From NCBI RefSeq assembly GCF_050920415.1, contig NZ_CP169309.1: DNA of 64,000 nucleotides. One strand, 5' to 3'. This DNA comes from Escherichia coli. GTDB lineage: Bacteria; Pseudomonadota; Gammaproteobacteria; Enterobacterales; Enterobacteriaceae. The notes beneath the pieces are model-generated. The model was given only the letters and a program-made list of their open reading frames with translations. It did no database searches and was not told the DNA's origin. The translations under genes and the position numbers were made by a program. Shown here piece by piece: positions 27,770-62,600 of the stretch (position 1 is its first letter; every line of letters begins with the position of its first letter).

Positions 27770-28309
27770 ATGAGTAACTGGTGGCAGGAACTGTTACGTT
27801 TCTTCCTGCGTGGTCTTACGCTACAACAGTTAATTCATATGCTTATTATTTTAATTGCCCTGATAATAATCACCCCAGCATCAATTAAAGAGTGGGTAGA
27901 TATAAGGAACCCCGAAATACTTCCAGATCACTGGATGTATTACGCAATGCTTTTGTGTATCAGTTATGTTCTGAACAGGGTGATGGAGTTTATATTTCTG
28001 GCATCTTCAGACAGATATAAAAAATATCTCAGTAAGAGAGATGAGGATAAAGTAATTGTGGAGACTGAGCGCCTGTTCAATTCTCTGAGTATTCAGGAAA
28101 AAGAGGTTTTAGCATTTGCTGTTATGGCAAATAACAAAATCGTACTTAAGCACGGCGATCCGGTCGCTTTATCTCTTATGAGAAAAGGCCTTCTCCATCG
28201 CTCAGGTGTGACTTACAGCGCGTCAGGTAAAGAGAAATTTGTTATACCTGACGTCTGGTTCCATGAGTGTTATATGCGCTTTGCTGGTAAAGCTGATGAG
28301 CTAATTTAG
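27770..28309 (+). CDS. sieB: SieB-like superinfection exclusion membrane protein
   Basis: 179 aa; two N-terminal TM helices; adjacent to N; family assignment from memory. Confidence 0.5.
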   Translation: MSNWWQELLRFFLRGLTLQQLIHMLIILIALIIITPASIKEWVDIRNPEILPDHWMYYAMLLCISYVLNRVMEFIFLASSDRYKKYLSKRDEDKVIVETERLFNSLSIQEKEVLAFAVMANNKIVLKHGDPVALSLMRKGLLHRSGVTYSASGKEKFVIPDVWFHECYMRFAGKADELI

Positions 28310-28330: not shown

Positions 28331-28714
28331 TCATCTCGCCGTCAGTTGTTTTGATTTCCGGTAGCCTGCTGCGTAAAGAGCTACATTTGGAAGACATACA
28401 CCAGTTTCTGGTTGCTTATGTCCAAACTCATTCGCGTACACAATGGCCGCTCTCTCCAGATTGCGTCTGTATTCTTTCTGTTGCCAGATCACGTCCTGTG
28501 CCATGAACTTAATTGGCTTAGCGTCTTCTATGCGCTCAGGCGTTTCGTGAGTACCTTTAGCCTGAATCTGCGCTCTGCTTAGAGTAGGGCGGTGTAATAC
28601 TTCTGAACTTATTGCTTCTTCGCGGGCCAGTACGCCGTTAGCTAATGCCTTTGCCTTTAAACGCTCACGACGACGAGAACGTGAATTGCCTTTGAACTGA
28701 GTTCTGCGTGTCAT
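28331..28714 (-). CDS. N-like antitermination protein (P22 gp24 type)
   Basis: Arg-rich N-terminus RRTQFKGNSRSRRRER; C-terminus LPNVALYAAGYRKSKQLTAR; downstream of pL/nutL. Confidence 0.7.
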   Translation of the reverse strand: MTRRTQFKGNSRSRRRERLKAKALANGVLAREEAISSEVLHRPTLSRAQIQAKGTHETPERIEDAKPIKFMAQDVIWQQKEYRRNLERAAIVYANEFGHKQPETGVCLPNVALYAAGYRKSKQLTAR

Positions 28715-28962: not shown

Positions 28963-29025
28963 AGTATCACCGCCAGTGGTATTTATGTCAACACCGCCAG
29001 AGATAATTTATCACCGCAGATGGTT
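28963..29025 (-). promoter_or_regulatory. pL promoter with OL1-OL2-OL3 operators
   Basis: TATCACCGCCAGTGGTA (28965-28981), CAACACCGCCAGAGATA (28989-29005), TATCACCGCAGATGGTT (29009-29025); reverse-strand -35 TTGACA and -10 GATACT. Confidence 0.75.
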
Positions 29026-29182
29026 ATCTGTATGTTTTTTATATAGATTTATTTTTTTGCAGGGGTGTGTGGCTTGGGAGGTGATCGAGAGATCTGAATT
29101 GCGATGTTTAGTGAGTTGTATCTATTAATTTTCAAATAAATACAATTGGTTATGTGTTATTGGGTGAAGGGGATCGTGAGGC

Positions 29183-29208
29183 AAAGAAAACCCGGCGCTG
29201 AGGCCGGG
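29183..29208 (-). terminator. intrinsic terminator ending the cI-orfA-orfB operon
   Basis: Reverse strand: CCCGGC-loop-GCCGGG hairpin followed by TTTTCTTT, 8 bp after orfB stop. Confidence 0.55.
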
Positions 29209-29215
29209 TTGTGTG

Positions 29216-29587
29216 TTACTTAAGAACGAGTCCGTTTAAGGCATCAAGGATTTTGGAAACATAACTTCCAAAAATGTAGGCGCAAAATGCGAACACGAAA
29301 CTGACAACGACCGCAGATGCCTTGATGGTGATTTTTGCTGAGCTAATGCTTGTCTCAATACCTGACAGACGAGAATCTACAGATTTTATATCTGACTTTA
29401 CTTCAGCGAGATCGCGCTTGATGTATTCAACATCAGACTCTAGCTTTGCAACTCTAGCCTCAAGCATGTTACCTCCGCCGTTTCCTCCACCATGCCGTGA
29501 GTATGCATCATCAGTGGAATAGTGTCCAATTGGGCGAGATATGTTTTGATTTGGACGAAGCTGAGCAACCTTGTTATCTAAACTCAT
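29216..29587 (-). CDS. rex-slot cassette gene B: small protein with Gly-rich segment, coiled coil and C-terminal TM helix
   Basis: 123 aa; GGGNGGGN, heptad-like LEARVAKLESDVEYIKRDLAEVKSDIKSVDSRL, hydrophobic AVVVSFVFAFCAYIFGSYV; overlaps gene A by 14 bp; resembles XhlA-type architecture from memory. Confidence 0.55.
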   Translation of the reverse strand: MSLDNKVAQLRPNQNISRPIGHYSTDDAYSRHGGGNGGGNMLEARVAKLESDVEYIKRDLAEVKSDIKSVDSRLSGIETSISSAKITIKASAVVVSFVFAFCAYIFGSYVSKILDALNGLVLK

Positions 29588-30011
29588 CGCGAACTGATCC
29601 TGTTATCTTCACGTCAAAAAACGAACTTTTTACATCAATTACTTCGCCTTTATCAGGATTAACCAGTGATGCTCTAACTTCGAATATCCCAGGCTTGATA
29701 ATTTTCACCCTTGGGAAGTTAATTCTCATAGAAGTTGATACGATGGTTTCTCCATCGTTGGCTTCTGCTACCGTAAAAAACTTATGGTTGGAGTACAGTT
29801 TTGTGTCAATTGGTATCGGTATTTCTTGAGCATTGAAAACCTCAATGCCTATGGAATATTTTTTTGTAGCCTTAAGGCCGATAAAAAAAGCGCCAAATGA
29901 TAGATCCACTTCATGGGAGTCTTTATCCATTTCATAGATAAGAACTGGAGTTACTGGGTTGCCTTCATCCATCGCAATCGGAATGATATAAGAAATACGT
30001 TCTTTAATCAT
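29574..30011 (-). CDS. rex-slot cassette gene A: hypothetical soluble protein, 145 aa
   Basis: ATG 7 nt after cI stop on same strand; AT-rich; no family recognised. Confidence 0.55.
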   Translation of the reverse strand: MIKERISYIIPIAMDEGNPVTPVLIYEMDKDSHEVDLSFGAFFIGLKATKKYSIGIEVFNAQEIPIPIDTKLYSNHKFFTVAEANDGETIVSTSMRINFPRVKIIKPGIFEVRASLVNPDKGEVIDVKSSFFDVKITGSVRDEFR

Positions 30012-30018
30012 TTACGTG

Positions 30019-30735
<717 letters not shown>

Positions 30736-30742
30736 TTAAATC

Positions 30743-30806
30743 TATCACCGCAAGGGATAAATATCTAACACCGTGCGTGTTGACTGTTTTACCTCTAGCG
30801 GTGATA
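30743..30806. promoter_or_regulatory. OR3-OR2-OR1 operators with pRM/pR
   Basis: TATCACCGCAAGGGATA, TAACACCGTGCGTGTTG, TACCTCTAGCGGTGATA; -35 TTGACT and -10 GATAAT for pR. Confidence 0.8.
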
Positions 30807-30832
30807 ATGGTTGCATGTACTAAGGAGGTTGT

Positions 30833-31033
30833 ATGGAACAACGCATAACCCTGAAAGATTATGCAATGCGCTTTGGGCAAACCAAGACAGCTAAAGATCT
30901 CGGTGTATATCAAAGCGCGATCAACAAGGCCATTCATTCAGGCCGAAATATTTTTTTAACTATAAACGCTGATGGAAGCGTTTATGCGGAAGAGGTAAAG
31001 CCCTTCCCAAGTAACAAAAAAACAACTGCATAA
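30833..31033 (+). CDS. cro: Cro repressor, lambda type
   Basis: 66 aa, near-identical to remembered lambda Cro. Confidence 0.9.
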
Positions 31034-31630: not shown

Positions 31631-32407
31631 ATGAGCATGAATCTTATGGCTAAGGCCATGAATATAAAGGTTGGCAACCCACTGAGAAAACTGGTTCTGA
31701 TTAAACTTGCCGATAACGCCAATGATAATGGCGAATGCTGGCCTTCATATCAACATGTCGCTGACCAGTGTGAGGTGAGCAGATCGACAGTAAAAAGTCA
31801 CATTAGGGCACTGGAAGAGATGGGGCTTTTGAAAAGGGAATTCAGAAGAAAAGGAGAGCTTAACCAGTCAAACGTTTTTTATCTGACGCTGGATAATGCA
31901 CAACAAATCCAACCAGAATCAGGTGGGGCAGGAGCTGCCCGGGGTGGGGCAGGAGCTGCCCTAGGGGGTGGGGCAGGAGCTGCCCCCAGAACCTATCACT
32001 CTTTTGAACCAGTCAATGAACCTAAAAACATTATGTTCGAACATGTCCGAACGGAGTGTGAAAAAACTCCTGACCGTCACGAAGAAACCGACAAGGCATT
32101 CGAGGAAATATTCTGGTGTGCAGGCATGCGGAAGGCCGGGAAGAAAAACGCAGCGTCGGCATTCAGAACACAGTTCAGGGAATGGCGTAAAACTACCAGG
32201 GGTACGGCAAGCGAGTTTGCCACGATGCTGGCAGAAGACATCGCATGCAGGAATGGTAAGCAGTTCGGATTCGACAGGTTGTTACCATCGAGCTACCTGA
32301 ACGGTCAACGCTGGAACGACGAGAAGCCAGAAACTATTCAACCACAATCCAAACCATCATCCGCAATCACCGTATCGAAAACTGGCTACGTGTTTTTCGA
32401 CAGGTGA
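31631..32407 (+). CDS. replication initiator (O-like, HTH N-terminus) containing origin iterons
   Basis: 258 aa; internal Gly/Ala-rich segment encoded by the iterons; position between cII and helicase. Confidence 0.6.
   Translation: MSMNLMAKAMNIKVGNPLRKLVLIKLADNANDNGECWPSYQHVADQCEVSRSTVKSHIRALEEMGLLKREFRRKGELNQSNVFYLTLDNAQQIQPESGGAGAARGGAGAALGGGAGAAPRTYHSFEPVNEPKNIMFEHVRTECEKTPDRHEETDKAFEEIFWCAGMRKAGKKNAASAFRTQFREWRKTTRGTASEFATMLAEDIACRNGKQFGFDRLLPSSYLNGQRWNDEKPETIQPQSKPSSAITVSKTGYVFFDR
31923..31985. repeat. three 18-bp direct repeats GTGGGGCAGGAGCTGCCC, candidate ori iterons
   Basis: Copies at 31923-31940, 31944-31961, 31968-31985; each internally near-palindromic. Confidence 0.55.
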
Positions 32408-32514
32408 ACCATGAAATCAAAAATCAAATCGCTACTGGTCGCTGGTTATAACCACGGCTGGTTAAGTATTTCGTTTGTCGATTTCTGGTTTAAAAATCTC
32501 AATCTGAGGGAATC

Positions 32515-34395
32515 ATGACGCCAAGTGAACTTAGCGACCTGCTTTGGGCGCAGGTTGACAGGGTGGCTCCGCACCTGTTGCCAAACGGCAAGAAAGAGGG
32601 GCATGAGTGGGTTGCCGGTAACGTCAACGGTGACAAGGGAAACAGCCTTAAGGTCAACCTTAGCGGCAAGAAAAAATGGGCTGATTTCGCTGAGGGAGAC
32701 GGCGGTGACATGCTTGATTTGTGGATGGCATGTCGTGGAATTAACCTGCATCAGGCTATGCAGGAAGCGAAAGCCTTTCTCGGTATCAAGGATGACGATC
32801 ACCATTTCGATGCCAAACGTGAGAAGAAATTCTCCAGACCTGATCGCAAGAAAATCGCCCGCTACGTTACCAGAACAGAATCCCATCTTGAGTACCTGCA
32901 ATCGCGTGGCATATCGCCAGAAGTCGTAAAGCGCTACGAGGTTGTCAGCGGCAAGGTGTGGAATGGAGAACGAGAACTTGATGCACTGGTGCTTCCGTAC
33001 AAACGCGATGGTGAGTTGTTGCAGGTCAAGCGAATCAGCACTGAGCGCCCGGACGGGAAGAAAGTCATTATGGCAGAAGGTGATTGTGAACCTTGTCTGT
33101 TCGGATGGCAGGCTCTGGACGCTGGCGTGAGGGCGGTTGTGCTTTGCGAAGGCGAAATTGATTGTATGAGCTATGCGCAATACGGCATCTCGGCGTTATC
33201 CGTGCCGTTTGGTGGAGGAAAAGGCGCTAAGCAGCAGTGGATTGAGTTTGAGTATCACAACCTCGACAGGTTTGAGGAAATATTCATCTCGATGGACGTT
33301 GATGATGTTGGTCGTGAAGCCGCAAGGGAAATCGCAAGCCGACTCGGTGAACATCGTTGCCGTCTTGTTACTCTGCCGTACAAAGACATCAACGAATGCC
33401 TGATGAACGGTGTTACCGAGGATGAAATCTGGCAGTACATCGGCACGGCATCCTACTTCGATCCTGAAGAACTCTACAGCGCGCGAGAGTTTTACCAGGA
33501 CACTATCAACGCTTTCTACGGCAAGCAGCAGTATCTATTTAATCCACCGTGGGAATCTCTGGCAGATAAATTCCAGTTCCGTGAGGCCGAGTTGACGCTG
33601 GTCAATGGTGTGAACGGTCACGGAAAAACGGAGGTTGTCGGGCATATGGCACTTGAGGCAATGCGTCAGGGTGTGAAGACGTGCATCGCGTCACTTGAGC
33701 TGAAGCCTGGTATTCTCCTTAAGCGCCTTACCCGTCAGGCAACGTGCTGCAAGATGCCGCCAGTGCTTGAAATTGACTCTGCATTTAAATTCTATGACGA
33801 AAGACTTTGGGTGTTTGGCCTGACCGGAACGGCGAAAGCCGACAGGTTGATCGAAATATTCGACTACGCTCGCCGCCGATACGGCATCCAGTTATTCATC
33901 ATCGACAGCCTGATGAAATGCGGCATAGGTGACGATGACTATAACGGGCAGAAAGCATTTGTTGACTCGATTTGCGACTTCAAAAACAAAACAAACTCCC
34001 ACGTCATTCTCGTTACTCACTCCAGAAAAGGAGACAGCGAAGAAAAACCAACCGGGAAAATGGACGTAAAAGGCTCTGGAGCGATAACAGACCTGACAGA
34101 CAACCTTTTCATCATCTGGCGTAACAAGGCTCGCGAGAGAGCGTTACAGAGAGTTCAGAGTGGTGAAAAGATGTCAGAGAAGGACGAACAGCTACTGGCA
34201 TCTCCGGCATCTGTTTTGATGCTTGAAAAACAACGTAACGGCGAAGGTTGGGAAGGTGGTGTCCCGTTGTTCCTTGACGAGCAATCGCACCAGTTCCTGC
34301 AACTTGAATCAGGATCGCCTTATAGCTACATCGCCAATATGCCGAAATCGGAATATGACGAGGCGTGGCGACAGGAAAACGTGACGGAGTATTAA
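32515..34395 (+). CDS. primase (toprim) / DnaB-like helicase fusion replication protein
   Basis: 626 aa; toprim-like VVLCEGEIDCMSY, Walker A GVNGHGKT, Walker B-like LFIIDSL. Confidence 0.65.
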   Translation: MTPSELSDLLWAQVDRVAPHLLPNGKKEGHEWVAGNVNGDKGNSLKVNLSGKKKWADFAEGDGGDMLDLWMACRGINLHQAMQEAKAFLGIKDDDHHFDAKREKKFSRPDRKKIARYVTRTESHLEYLQSRGISPEVVKRYEVVSGKVWNGERELDALVLPYKRDGELLQVKRISTERPDGKKVIMAEGDCEPCLFGWQALDAGVRAVVLCEGEIDCMSYAQYGISALSVPFGGGKGAKQQWIEFEYHNLDRFEEIFISMDVDDVGREAAREIASRLGEHRCRLVTLPYKDINECLMNGVTEDEIWQYIGTASYFDPEELYSAREFYQDTINAFYGKQQYLFNPPWESLADKFQFREAELTLVNGVNGHGKTEVVGHMALEAMRQGVKTCIASLELKPGILLKRLTRQATCCKMPPVLEIDSAFKFYDERLWVFGLTGTAKADRLIEIFDYARRRYGIQLFIIDSLMKCGIGDDDYNGQKAFVDSICDFKNKTNSHVILVTHSRKGDSEEKPTGKMDVKGSGAITDLTDNLFIIWRNKARERALQRVQSGEKMSEKDEQLLASPASVLMLEKQRNGEGWEGGVPLFLDEQSHQFLQLESGSPYSYIANMPKSEYDEAWRQENVTEY

Positions 34396-61206: not shown

Positions 61207-62400
61207 TCACTCCACCTTTTCATCAATCCAATCCGCCCACCACTGCATCATTTCTCTGCGCTTATCGAGATACTGAGCATGGTTGTAAATTCCGCGCACA
61301 GATCCGCCGTTGGCATGTGCCAGTTGCACTTCAATAGCATCAGCAGGCCATTCGTGCTCGTTCATAATCGTGCTGAATTCATGCCTGAATCCGTGACCGC
61401 TTTCCAGACCTTCATAGCCGATTTGTTTGATCACAAGCAGTACCGCGTTCTCGCAGATTGGCTTCTTCTTATCGTTGCGCCCGGCAAAAACAAACTCTGA
61501 TACTGGTTTGGTGATTGAGCTTAGCGTAGTGAGAAGTTCAACCACCTGGTCCGACATCGGGACAACATGAATCTTGCGTCCCTTCATCACACTGGCGTCG
61601 ATAGTGATAATCCTGTTTTCAAAATCGACGTTCTTCCATTGCATGGAACGAAGCTCTTTCGTTCTTAGGGCTGTGTAGCGTAAAACTTTGGTCGCAATGA
61701 GCGATACGATACTTCCTGAAAATGTTGCCAGTGCTTTGTTGAATGCAGGGATCTGGTCTGCAGGAAGAAACGGGAAGTTCTTCTTGCGGTATCCCTTCAT
61801 GGCGTCAGCAAGGTCAGGTGCCGGGTTATATTTAGCCCTTCCGGTGACAATAGCGTAACGGAAAACCTCGCCGCATCTTCTGCGTGCTTTGTTGGCTCGC
61901 TCCATTGCACCGCGATCTTCAAATCTGCGGATTACTTCCAGAAGTTGCATCGGCTCAATATCCTGAATTTCAAGGCTGCCGATGATAGGTAAAATGTCGT
62001 CATCAAACATTTTGGCAAGTTCAGTTGCATAGCCTACTGACCAGACTTGCTTCTTGTGCTCGTACCATTCCTTGTAAATCGCACTAAAGGAATTGTTGTT
62101 AGACGAAGCCTTTTTCGCCTTTACCGGATCGATACCAACCGAGATGTCTTTCCTCGCAGTCCATGCTTTATCCCTTGCCTCCTGCAAAGTCATAAGCGGA
62201 TATTTTCCGACGGTCAGGATTTTCTCCTTACCGTCAATCTTGTAGCGAAGCTGCCATACCTTTTTCCCTGACACAGGGACATAAAGGTACAGGCCATTAC
62301 CATCGAGAAGGCGGTATGGTTTTTCTTTCGGCTTTGCTGCTTCAATCTGCTTAACGGTGAGCATGGGTAAAAATCCGGTGGGTAAAATTATTTTATCCAC
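61207..62400 (-). CDS. intS: tyrosine integrase (IntS / KplE1-Sf6 type); likely start is the internal ATG at 62364
   Basis: C-terminal catalytic signature R..HGFRHEFST..Y; adjacent to argW. Confidence 0.9.
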   Translation of the reverse strand: MDKIILPTGFLPMLTVKQIEAAKPKEKPYRLLDGNGLYLYVPVSGKKVWQLRYKIDGKEKILTVGKYPLMTLQEARDKAWTARKDISVGIDPVKAKKASSNNNSFSAIYKEWYEHKKQVWSVGYATELAKMFDDDILPIIGSLEIQDIEPMQLLEVIRRFEDRGAMERANKARRRCGEVFRYAIVTGRAKYNPAPDLADAMKGYRKKNFPFLPADQIPAFNKALATFSGSIVSLIATKVLRYTALRTKELRSMQWKNVDFENRIITIDASVMKGRKIHVVPMSDQVVELLTTLSSITKPVSEFVFAGRNDKKKPICENAVLLVIKQIGYEGLESGHGFRHEFSTIMNEHEWPADAIEVQLAHANGGSVRGIYNHAQYLDKRREMMQWWADWIDEKVE

Positions 62401-62520: not shown

Positions 62521-62540
62521 ATAAATGGTGTCCCCTGCAG
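62521..62540. repeat. prophage att core, integrase/argW-proximal copy
   Basis: Exact repeat of 22364-22383. Confidence 0.8.
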
Positions 62541-62600
62541 GAATCGAACCTGCAATTAGCCCTTAGGAGGGGCTCGTTATATCCATTTAACTAAGAGGAC
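62526..62600 (-). tRNA. argW: tRNA-Arg (argW)
   Basis: Reverse strand reads GTCCTCTTAGTTAAATGGATATAACGAGCCCCTCCTAAGGGCTAATTGCAGGTTCGATTCCTGCAGGGGACACCA, 75 nt with T-arm and CCA end. Confidence 0.9.

Follow-up and report, generated by a model that had tools for sequence, protein, structure and literature searches.

A two-gene cassette in place of rexAB behind the repressor of a lambda-immunity prophage of Escherichia coli: a candidate exclusion module

Introduction

What does a prophage of lambda immunity type carry behind its repressor when the genes there are not rexA and rexB, and what might such genes do? The question is raised by a stretch of 64,000 nt from Escherichia coli (assembly GCF_050920415.1, contig NZ_CP169309.1), referred to here as the window, in which the cI gene of a prophage is followed by two small genes that we call A and B. 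We found that the pair replaces rexAB precisely, that its two genes are genuine and almost always linked, and that it is a portable moron which is not tied to the rex slot. Gene A is predicted to encode a soluble beta-sandwich protein and gene B a coiled-coil membrane protein. From position and architecture, we tentatively favour a role as a lysogen-expressed exclusion module of the abortive-infection type with a membrane effector, and consider the pair a good candidate for a new prophage-encoded anti-phage module.

Genes A and B occupy the place of rexA and rexB

We aligned the immunity region with that of lambda and found that the identity ends at the last codon of cI and restarts about 2 nt (about 10 nt with scattered matches included) upstream of the t_imm hairpin, from where it runs on through OL and pL. 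The cassette of 796 bp therefore sits exactly in the place of rexA-rexB. This agrees with an earlier model-made reading of the same DNA (the sequence-only reading), which had described a pair of ~0.8 kb in the rexAB slot of an otherwise lambda-like region with a near-identical CI (Table 1). The start of A 7 nt past the cI stop codon and the 14-nt overlap of B with A also stood as first read; there is no obvious Shine-Dalgarno sequence at the start of A. The terminator hairpin, which had been placed 8 bp past B, was found to start 5 nt after the B stop codon. It is G+C-rich, is followed by a T run (29210..29189) and has the same sequence as the one after lambda rexB. The pair had further been called AT-rich, which held in a mild form only, with a G+C content of 37-45% over A-B as compared with 45-48% in cI.

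The 7-nt gap, the gene overlap and the common t_imm terminator fit a single transcript from pRM, so that expression of the pair along with cI in the lysogen is predicted, as had been argued before from the layout. A search for an internal promoter for B comparable to lambda pLIT gave two weak 9/12 matches only, and the number of promoter-like sites equalled that expected from shuffled sequence. Between lambda-identical flanks, the same slot was found to hold other cargo elsewhere, namely rexAB, a P63C-domain gene or small open reading frames (ORFs). The A-B cassette is thus present or absent between near-identical flanks, differs from them in base composition and is followed by a terminator after B both in the window and at a distant locus (L076, see below), all of which mark it as a moron.

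Genes A and B are genuine and almost always linked

Homologous A-B pairs were identified at >100 loci on viral and metagenomic contigs, and the exact proteins of the window were present on ~560 contigs. To compare the two classes of change, we used the proportions of non-synonymous (pN) and synonymous (pS) differences. For A, pN was 0.14-0.48 and pS 0.65-0.91, with synonymous sites near saturation, while for the first 45 codons of B the values were 0.19-0.38 and 0.37-0.84, respectively. Non-synonymous change was far below synonymous change, indicating purifying selection on both A and B, including the N-terminal 45 codons of B. A and B are real genes and not chance ORFs.

B lay directly downstream of A in all 67 A-seeded loci but one, which was interrupted by a contig end, and the two genes overlapped by 4-23 nt, mostly by 14 nt. 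A scan seeded with B gave 77 loci, 69 of which had A upstream. All five B homologues that were checked individually also had an A-family gene upstream, called by pairwise BLASTP for the first (E 1e-06) and by hidden Markov model for the other four (E 1e-11 to 1e-62). The whole pair was found in 13 of 5,426 complete E. coli genomes, including that of enteropathogenic E. coli (EPEC) E2348/69; rexAB was found in 99. Homologues occur in the Salmonella phages epsilon34, g341c and NM-3, and the pair is spread over many Enterobacterales, among them E. coli, Salmonella, E. albertii, Enterobacter, Klebsiella, Serratia, Providencia and Yersinia.

The genes upstream of A fell into about eleven clusters, nearly all of them repressors: S24-type CI (several clusters), the short helix-turn-helix repressors of Rac-like prophages with YdaS/YdaT, and the ribbon-helix-helix/Arc type. 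The sequence-only reading had suggested a survey of the pair behind cI-family repressors. The pair does mostly follow repressors, but it was also found adjacent to Arc and in tail-gene clusters. At L076 (3001-3828), A-B is flanked by the tape-measure gene and gpM of a tail cluster resembling that of lambda and has a bidirectional terminator hairpin directly after B. Other distant pairs are those at L074 (3001-3751) and L068 (3023-3869), and the distant sites include baseplate genes and a divergent Arc gene in a Providencia prophage. Immediately upstream of the pair at both L068 and L074 there is a gene, which may be a further moron, for a small protein whose N-terminus resembles a signal peptide.

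A is a predicted beta-sandwich protein and B a predicted tail-anchored coiled coil

A is predicted to be a cytoplasmic protein with an immunoglobulin (Ig)-like beta-sandwich. Its AlphaFold model had eight beta strands and a predicted local distance difference test score (pLDDT) of 88.9, and neither a transmembrane (TM) segment nor a signal peptide was predicted. Searches of Pfam, NCBIfam, PADLOC and PDB sequences with A returned nothing, and A was assigned to PHROG 5893, a family without assigned function. Structure searches against BFVD and AFDB50 matched A to uncharacterised proteins of 130-145 aa, of which those in Enterobacterales are the closest and those in many Firmicutes match less well. 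The Firmicute proteins in AFDB50 share the fold at TM scores of 0.6-0.75 and come from Streptococcus, Lactobacillus, Listeria, Clostridium and Staphylococcus. Remote profile matches of A to three giant proteins (P0098, P0104 and P0106) were not taken as evidence of an origin from adhesin repeats; since P0106 is a ricin beta-trefoil repeat protein, we consider these matches artefacts of repeats or composition.

The B protein begins with a peptide of ~32 residues that is predicted to be disordered and carries a conserved xLRPNQD motif. It is followed by a nearly invariant HGGGNGGG motif, in which G37, G38 and G39 are invariant across the homologues. From residue 41 to ~91 the heptads are uninterrupted, with 14 of 15 a/d positions hydrophobic in one register, and a single TM segment (residues 92-110; 19-residue Kyte-Doolittle maximum of 2.11 at residue 92) precedes a 13-residue amphipathic end. 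Heptad and hydropathy analysis thus bore out the Gly-rich segment, heptad coiled coil and single C-terminal TM helix noted earlier. Since B has no signal peptide and its N-terminal part is a charged stretch of 90 residues, we infer that it is tail-anchored with its N-terminus in the cytoplasm. When A and B were modeled by AlphaFold as one chain, A-(GGGGS)6-B, from a paired alignment, residues 41-121 of B formed one helix and residues 1-40 were disordered.

Profile matches of B in the PDB were generic coiled coils, several of them trimeric (Lpp and fibritin), and B was assigned to PHROG 6136, again a family without assigned function. B had also been called XhlA-like. The order of a coiled coil and then one C-terminal TM helix does agree with that description, but the profile match to Pfam XhlA (PF10779) was weak (independent E-value 0.002, 18.7 bits, model positions 9-55 of 67), and only one of 11 B family members matched at E<=0.001. 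As judged by profile, the likeness is weak and of the coiled-coil level, and the NCBI name of B, 'hemolysin XhlA', would derive from this match. A PADLOC match of B to 'CorA-like' (E 0.004, 15 bits) was confined to the coiled coil and TM helix and was judged compositional. In all, profile searches of A and B yielded no significant family in PADLOC 2.0, NCBIfam or Pfam.

B is a modular protein with a possible internal start

Of the 30 distinct B genes examined, 27 have, within the codons of the Gly motif, a GGAGG (24 genes) or a GGGGG (3 genes) that precedes by 4-10 nt the conserved in-frame ATG/GTG at which the coiled coil begins. The spacing was exactly 7 nt in 18 genes (16 with GGAGG and 2 with GGGGG). 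GGA makes up just 31% of the remaining Gly codons in the B genes, and GGAGG is kept across lineages in which synonymous sites are otherwise near saturation. In addition, a natural B gene at locus L126 begins at the equivalent of Met41 and has no N-terminal peptide. The internal GGAGG-N7-ATG suggests a candidate short isoform of 83 aa, consisting of the coiled coil and TM helix. Dual-start control is found in membrane-lesion proteins such as lambda S107/S105 and P22 SieB/Esc, and for this reason we count the motif in favor of a membrane effector.

Where A genes and B N-termini are identical, at least five different coiled-coil/TM tails were found to follow, all of them attached at the Gly motif, and the same break was seen in two E. 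coli genomes (matches H34 and H35). The partner of B varies as well. In seven of the 77 B loci, A is replaced by a four-cysteine zinc-ribbon protein of 119-127 aa belonging to PHROG 4293 (L100 2578-2961, where the order is S24 repressor, zinc-ribbon protein and B; also L101-L105 and L116), and in one of the 77 by a 90-aa protein of PHROG 4231 (L111 2585-2857). Both PHROGs are families without assigned function, and neither partner had a significant match in PADLOC, NCBIfam or Pfam. The N-terminal peptide of B varies by partner type. These loci show that B is a constant membrane-anchored coiled-coil module of which both the upstream partner and the tail are exchangeable.

Relation of the pair to known systems

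The pair resembles RexAB in that it lies directly after cI and before OL/pL with the same t_imm end, and in that it consists of two genes, one for a soluble and one for a membrane protein, with presumed pRM expression in the lysogen. The proteins themselves differ. A is a predicted beta-sandwich of 145 aa as compared with 279 aa for RexA, and B, with its long coiled coil and one C-terminal TM helix, contrasts with the four TM segments of RexB. The arrangement also differs, since A and B overlap, have no 110-nt spacer after cI and occupy 0.8 kb instead of ~1.3 kb. By BLASTP, A matched lambda RexA with E=10, and B matched RexB over 13/49 residues with E=0.004, a value from a single comparison and outside comparable features. 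Neither is a homologue of its Rex counterpart, as the sequence-only reading had maintained.

True homologues are genes 45/44 of phage epsilon34 (also found in g341c and NM-3), in which A and the 5' part of B are 78% identical at the DNA level. The A homologue has 74% protein identity and lies in the same slot, but the repressor upstream is different and the coiled-coil/TM tail of gp44 differs from that of the window B past the Gly motif. Genes 44/45 were described in 2008 in the repressor operon as being 'like rexA and rexB', without an assigned function (PMC2629481). BstA of the Salmonella prophage BTP1 is likewise encoded directly downstream of the repressor; its expression in lysogens is high, and it has been proven to act as an abortive-infection defence (PMC8585504). 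BstA behind the BTP1 repressor indicates that this slot is used for defence cargo. In its nature, BstA is unlike the pair, being a single large protein with a KilA-N-like domain that acts at phage DNA replication sites; it is dissimilar to A and B, and no BstA or KilA-N-like profile matched either of them in PADLOC or Pfam. The P63C-domain gene that occupies the slot in other E. coli was considered as a possible BstA, but had no match in PADLOC.

The gene order is similar to that of xepA-xhlA in the Bacillus subtilis prophage PBSX, where a beta-sandwich gene lies directly upstream of a small gene for a protein with a coiled coil and C-terminal TM helix. Lysis requires XhlA, the beta-sandwich protein XepA is cytotoxic, both have been tied to membrane damage, and their genes come directly after the tail genes (PMC6834076). 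XepA, which forms pentamers, differs from A in having two sandwich domains, and unlike A-B, xepA-xhlA lies with holin and endolysin genes in the late operon and not in an immunity operon. Neither a holin nor an endolysin gene was next to B in any of the loci read; B was in immunity operons or in tail-gene morons. Sequence homology of the pair to XepA-XhlA was not detected. A profile-profile comparison of A with XepA/YomS was negative, and the comparison of B with BhlA, the holin-like protein of SPbeta, by hhalign gave a probability of 0.4%. No homology of A or B to SieB or SieA was found, and the sieB-like gene of the window is a separate ORF. A-B is thus not a demonstrable member of the XhlA, XepA/YomS, BstA or superinfection exclusion (Sie) families.

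Pairs of a cytoplasmic and a membrane protein are also encoded next to the repressor in the phages Sbash, CarolAnn and Butters. These pairs (gp30/31, gp43/44 and gp30/31, respectively) are reported to be two-gene exclusion modules of temperate Mycobacteriophage/Gordonia phages. Their hosts are different from those of A-B, and the proteins were taken as unrelated with no sequence comparison made here.

Proposed function of the pair and its alternatives

We propose that A-B is a portable two-gene moron, expressed here from the repressor promoter in the lysogen, that would most likely exclude phages by working at the inner membrane, on its cytoplasmic side. B would be the constant part, an oligomeric tail-anchored coiled-coil stalk with probably a long and a short form, and A, the soluble Ig-like beta-sandwich, would be its exchangeable partner. 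A may recognise a component of the infecting phage, or may restrain B, by way of the disordered N-terminal peptide of B. Upon infection, B would disturb the membrane, through loss of membrane potential or premature lysis, and the infected cell would then give no phage. This would be the logic of RexA and RexB carried out by unrelated proteins.

The argument from position is strong but indirect. The known occupants of the slot, lambda rexAB and BTP1 bstA, are exclusion genes, and the pair is an exact replacement of rexAB between the cI stop and t_imm. The tight linkage of A and B, their location mostly behind repressors, the combination of a constant membrane protein with a variable soluble partner and the rarity of the pair as an accessory element in E. 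coli all argue for the same function. The cI-N slot has been recognised as a hotspot within a lysogenic operon that is highly transcribed (PMC8585504), and the authors of the epsilon34 genome paper counted genes 44/45 among those for which they expected expression from the prophage (PMC2629481). Several observations weigh on the other side. With no match in PADLOC, position and architecture have to carry the whole case. In the AlphaFold model of the fused chain, which is not equivalent to a genuine multimer prediction, no docking of A on B was apparent, and the B N-terminus had a pLDDT of 32-41. In several B tails the TM helix is purely hydrophobic and so resembles an anchor more than a pore former. 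The distant copies that are co-oriented inside tail-gene clusters could be late genes, and these sites together with those at Arc repressors weaken the argument from a position behind cI and leave room for a late or lysis role. Moreover, the same prophage already has a sieB-like exclusion gene.

The most serious rival, although we consider it unlikely, is that the pair is an accessory of the prophage's own lysis or late functions, a Gram-negative counterpart of xepA-xhlA that would aid or time the breaching of the membrane as the lytic cycle closes, or else a tuner of the switch between lysogeny and lysis. Gene order and architecture agree with PBSX xepA-xhlA, B has its weak Pfam match to XhlA, and the distant A-B copies come co-oriented right after tape-measure or baseplate genes, much as xepA follows the tail genes of PBSX. 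A dual start of this kind is typical for holin/antiholin pairs, and Foldseek found A-like folds in many uncharacterised Firmicute proteins of 130-145 aa. On the other hand, profile comparison was negative for A against YomS and for B against BhlA, the majority of copies are in repressor operons, and the prophages that carry the pair have ordinary lysis cassettes. Slightly less probable is exclusion at the level of entry, where B with A would block genome injection or an early step at the inner membrane and the cell would survive, as with P22 SieA or HK97 gp15. Such a block would suit a predicted inner-membrane protein with simple anchor-like TM helices in a lysogen-expressed slot. It would also suit the distant copies that are morons in tail-gene clusters, where HK97 gene 15, cor and other exclusion genes are located. 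Yet all of A and nearly all of B are predicted to be cytoplasmic and not periplasmic, known Sie proteins are as a rule single proteins of the membrane or periplasm, and a cytoplasmic partner that can be exchanged is more in keeping with sensing than with a passive block.

The remaining two explanations are less likely. In a toxin-antitoxin (TA)-like addiction module that keeps the prophage in place and has no direct anti-phage role, the membrane toxin would be B, neutralised by A or by its own short isoform. We regard this as improbable: two small, overlapping and translationally coupled genes for a soluble and a membrane protein, strictly linked and mobile across many backgrounds, would be in keeping with it, but a DNA-binding antitoxin and an autoregulated promoter are both lacking, the pair depends on the repressor promoter, and no known TA family was matched in NCBIfam, Pfam or PADLOC. 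This explanation also overlaps with that of abortive infection, since many TA-like modules are abortive-infection systems. More improbable still is a lysogenic conversion unrelated to phages, for instance an interaction with the host or a 'hemolysin' in enteropathogenic E. coli and Salmonella. The NCBI name of B points that way, the pair is present in the pathogens E2348/69, Salmonella and E. albertii, and morons can carry virulence factors. However, that name goes back to a weak coiled-coil match, A and B lack secretion signals and are both predicted to face the cytoplasm, and the pair is also spread over Enterobacter, Serratia, Providencia and Yersinia.

Beyond the exclusion module that we favor for this prophage, a broader and doubtful extension would be a new family of membrane-tethered exclusion devices with an isoform-toggled coiled-coil core and swappable cytosolic sensors, perhaps of domesticated lysis stock. 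The core would be a tail-anchored, probably trimeric coiled-coil protein made in long and short isoforms from the internal GGAGG-N7-ATG, and the isoforms could be effector and anti-effector as in holin/antiholin pairs. The Ig-like A, PHROG 4293 or PHROG 4231 would each gate B through its disordered N-terminal peptide. Such a family may share stock with the Gram-positive XepA-XhlA, in which case a phage lysis component would have been domesticated as a suicide switch of the lysogen.

Novelty and significance

A literature search covering full text and supplements and including the accessions WP_000588958 and WP_000050903 turned up no paper in which the pair is named or tested; the study of Brenes and Laub 2025, reportedly a screen of E. 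coli prophages for defence genes, was outside its coverage. The earlier view of the pair as a candidate for an undescribed defence system would hold to that extent, but the rex-like position of epsilon34 genes 44/45 was noted in 2008 (PMC2629481) and the slot is a known hotspot (PMC8585504). New here are the precise replacement of rexAB by A-B in a lambda-immunity prophage and the picture of a family with an internal start signal, in which linkage is obligate, the prophage sites are of several kinds, and both partner and tail can be exchanged.

The mechanism of RexAB is unsettled after more than 60 years, and a non-homologous pair in the same place offers an independent handle on it. A-B has the same soluble plus membrane logic in much simpler proteins, and might show how exclusion modules in repressor operons sense infection and act on the membrane. 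Its modules (partner, tail and possible isoforms) hint at where specificity and effector function reside, and the natural chimeras are ready-made. Since the pair is present in EPEC E2348/69, Salmonella, Enterobacter, Klebsiella and Yersinia, it could affect phage typing and phage therapy. If its function is not defence, the pair would be a first hint of a XepA/XhlA-like membrane module in Gram-negative phages.

The surrounding prophage

The features of the immunity region are listed in Table 1. The pL hexamers are TTGACA-17-GATACT, and a pR-like site was found at 30780-30808 on the plus strand. Beyond N, the sieB-like gene lies on the opposite strand as in lambda, so that the prophage would have two candidate exclusion functions around pL.

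Table 1. Features in and around the A-B cassette (positions in the window)
Feature	Position	Strand	Remark
cI repressor, lambda immunity type, 237 aa	30019..30732	-	235/237 residues identical to lambda CI
Gene A, 145 aa, predicted cytoplasmic all-beta protein, PHROG 5893	29574..30011	-	
Gene B, 123 aa, predicted tail-anchored coiled-coil membrane protein, PHROG 6136	29216..29587	-	
Gly motif codons, GGGNGGG, B residues 33-39	29471..29491	-	C-terminal tail junction
Candidate internal ribosome-binding site and start in B	29465..29476	-	GGAGG 29476-29472, ATG (Met41) 29467-29465
Heptad coiled coil of B, residues 41-91	29315..29467	-	
Single C-terminal TM helix of B, residues 92-110	29258..29314	-	Predicted by Kyte-Doolittle hydropathy
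Intrinsic terminator, lambda t_imm, hairpin AACCCGGCCTCAGCGCCGGGTT then T run	29180..29210	-	
OL1-OL3 operators (29025..28965) and pL (28991..28963)	28963..29025	-	Near-identical to lambda
OR/pRM/pR region, cI-cro interval	30733..30832		pRM assigned by identity to lambda
N antiterminator, left edge of variable slot	28331..28714	-	PHROG 271, E 1e-38
cro-like ORF	30833-31033	+	
sieB-like gene	27770-28309	+	PHROG 1301, E 4e-94

The replication module (31631-34395, plus strand) is not that of lambda O/P and consists of a gene for a 258-aa O-like initiator followed by one for a 626-aa primase/helicase (PHROG 239). In E2348/69 and NCCP 13717, replication genes of the DnaB type or O/P type adjoin this cI-A-B block, so that the immunity block moves between backgrounds. 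An ORF of 397 aa (61207-62400, minus strand), a putative integrase gene by its position, adjoins tRNA-Arg(CCU) at 62526-62600. This tRNA gene would be the insertion site of the prophage, which appears to be P22-like. At the other end, positions 1-22000 of the window resemble host DNA (evgS, emrKY and dsd) as judged by ORF sizes and by comparison with NCCP 13717.

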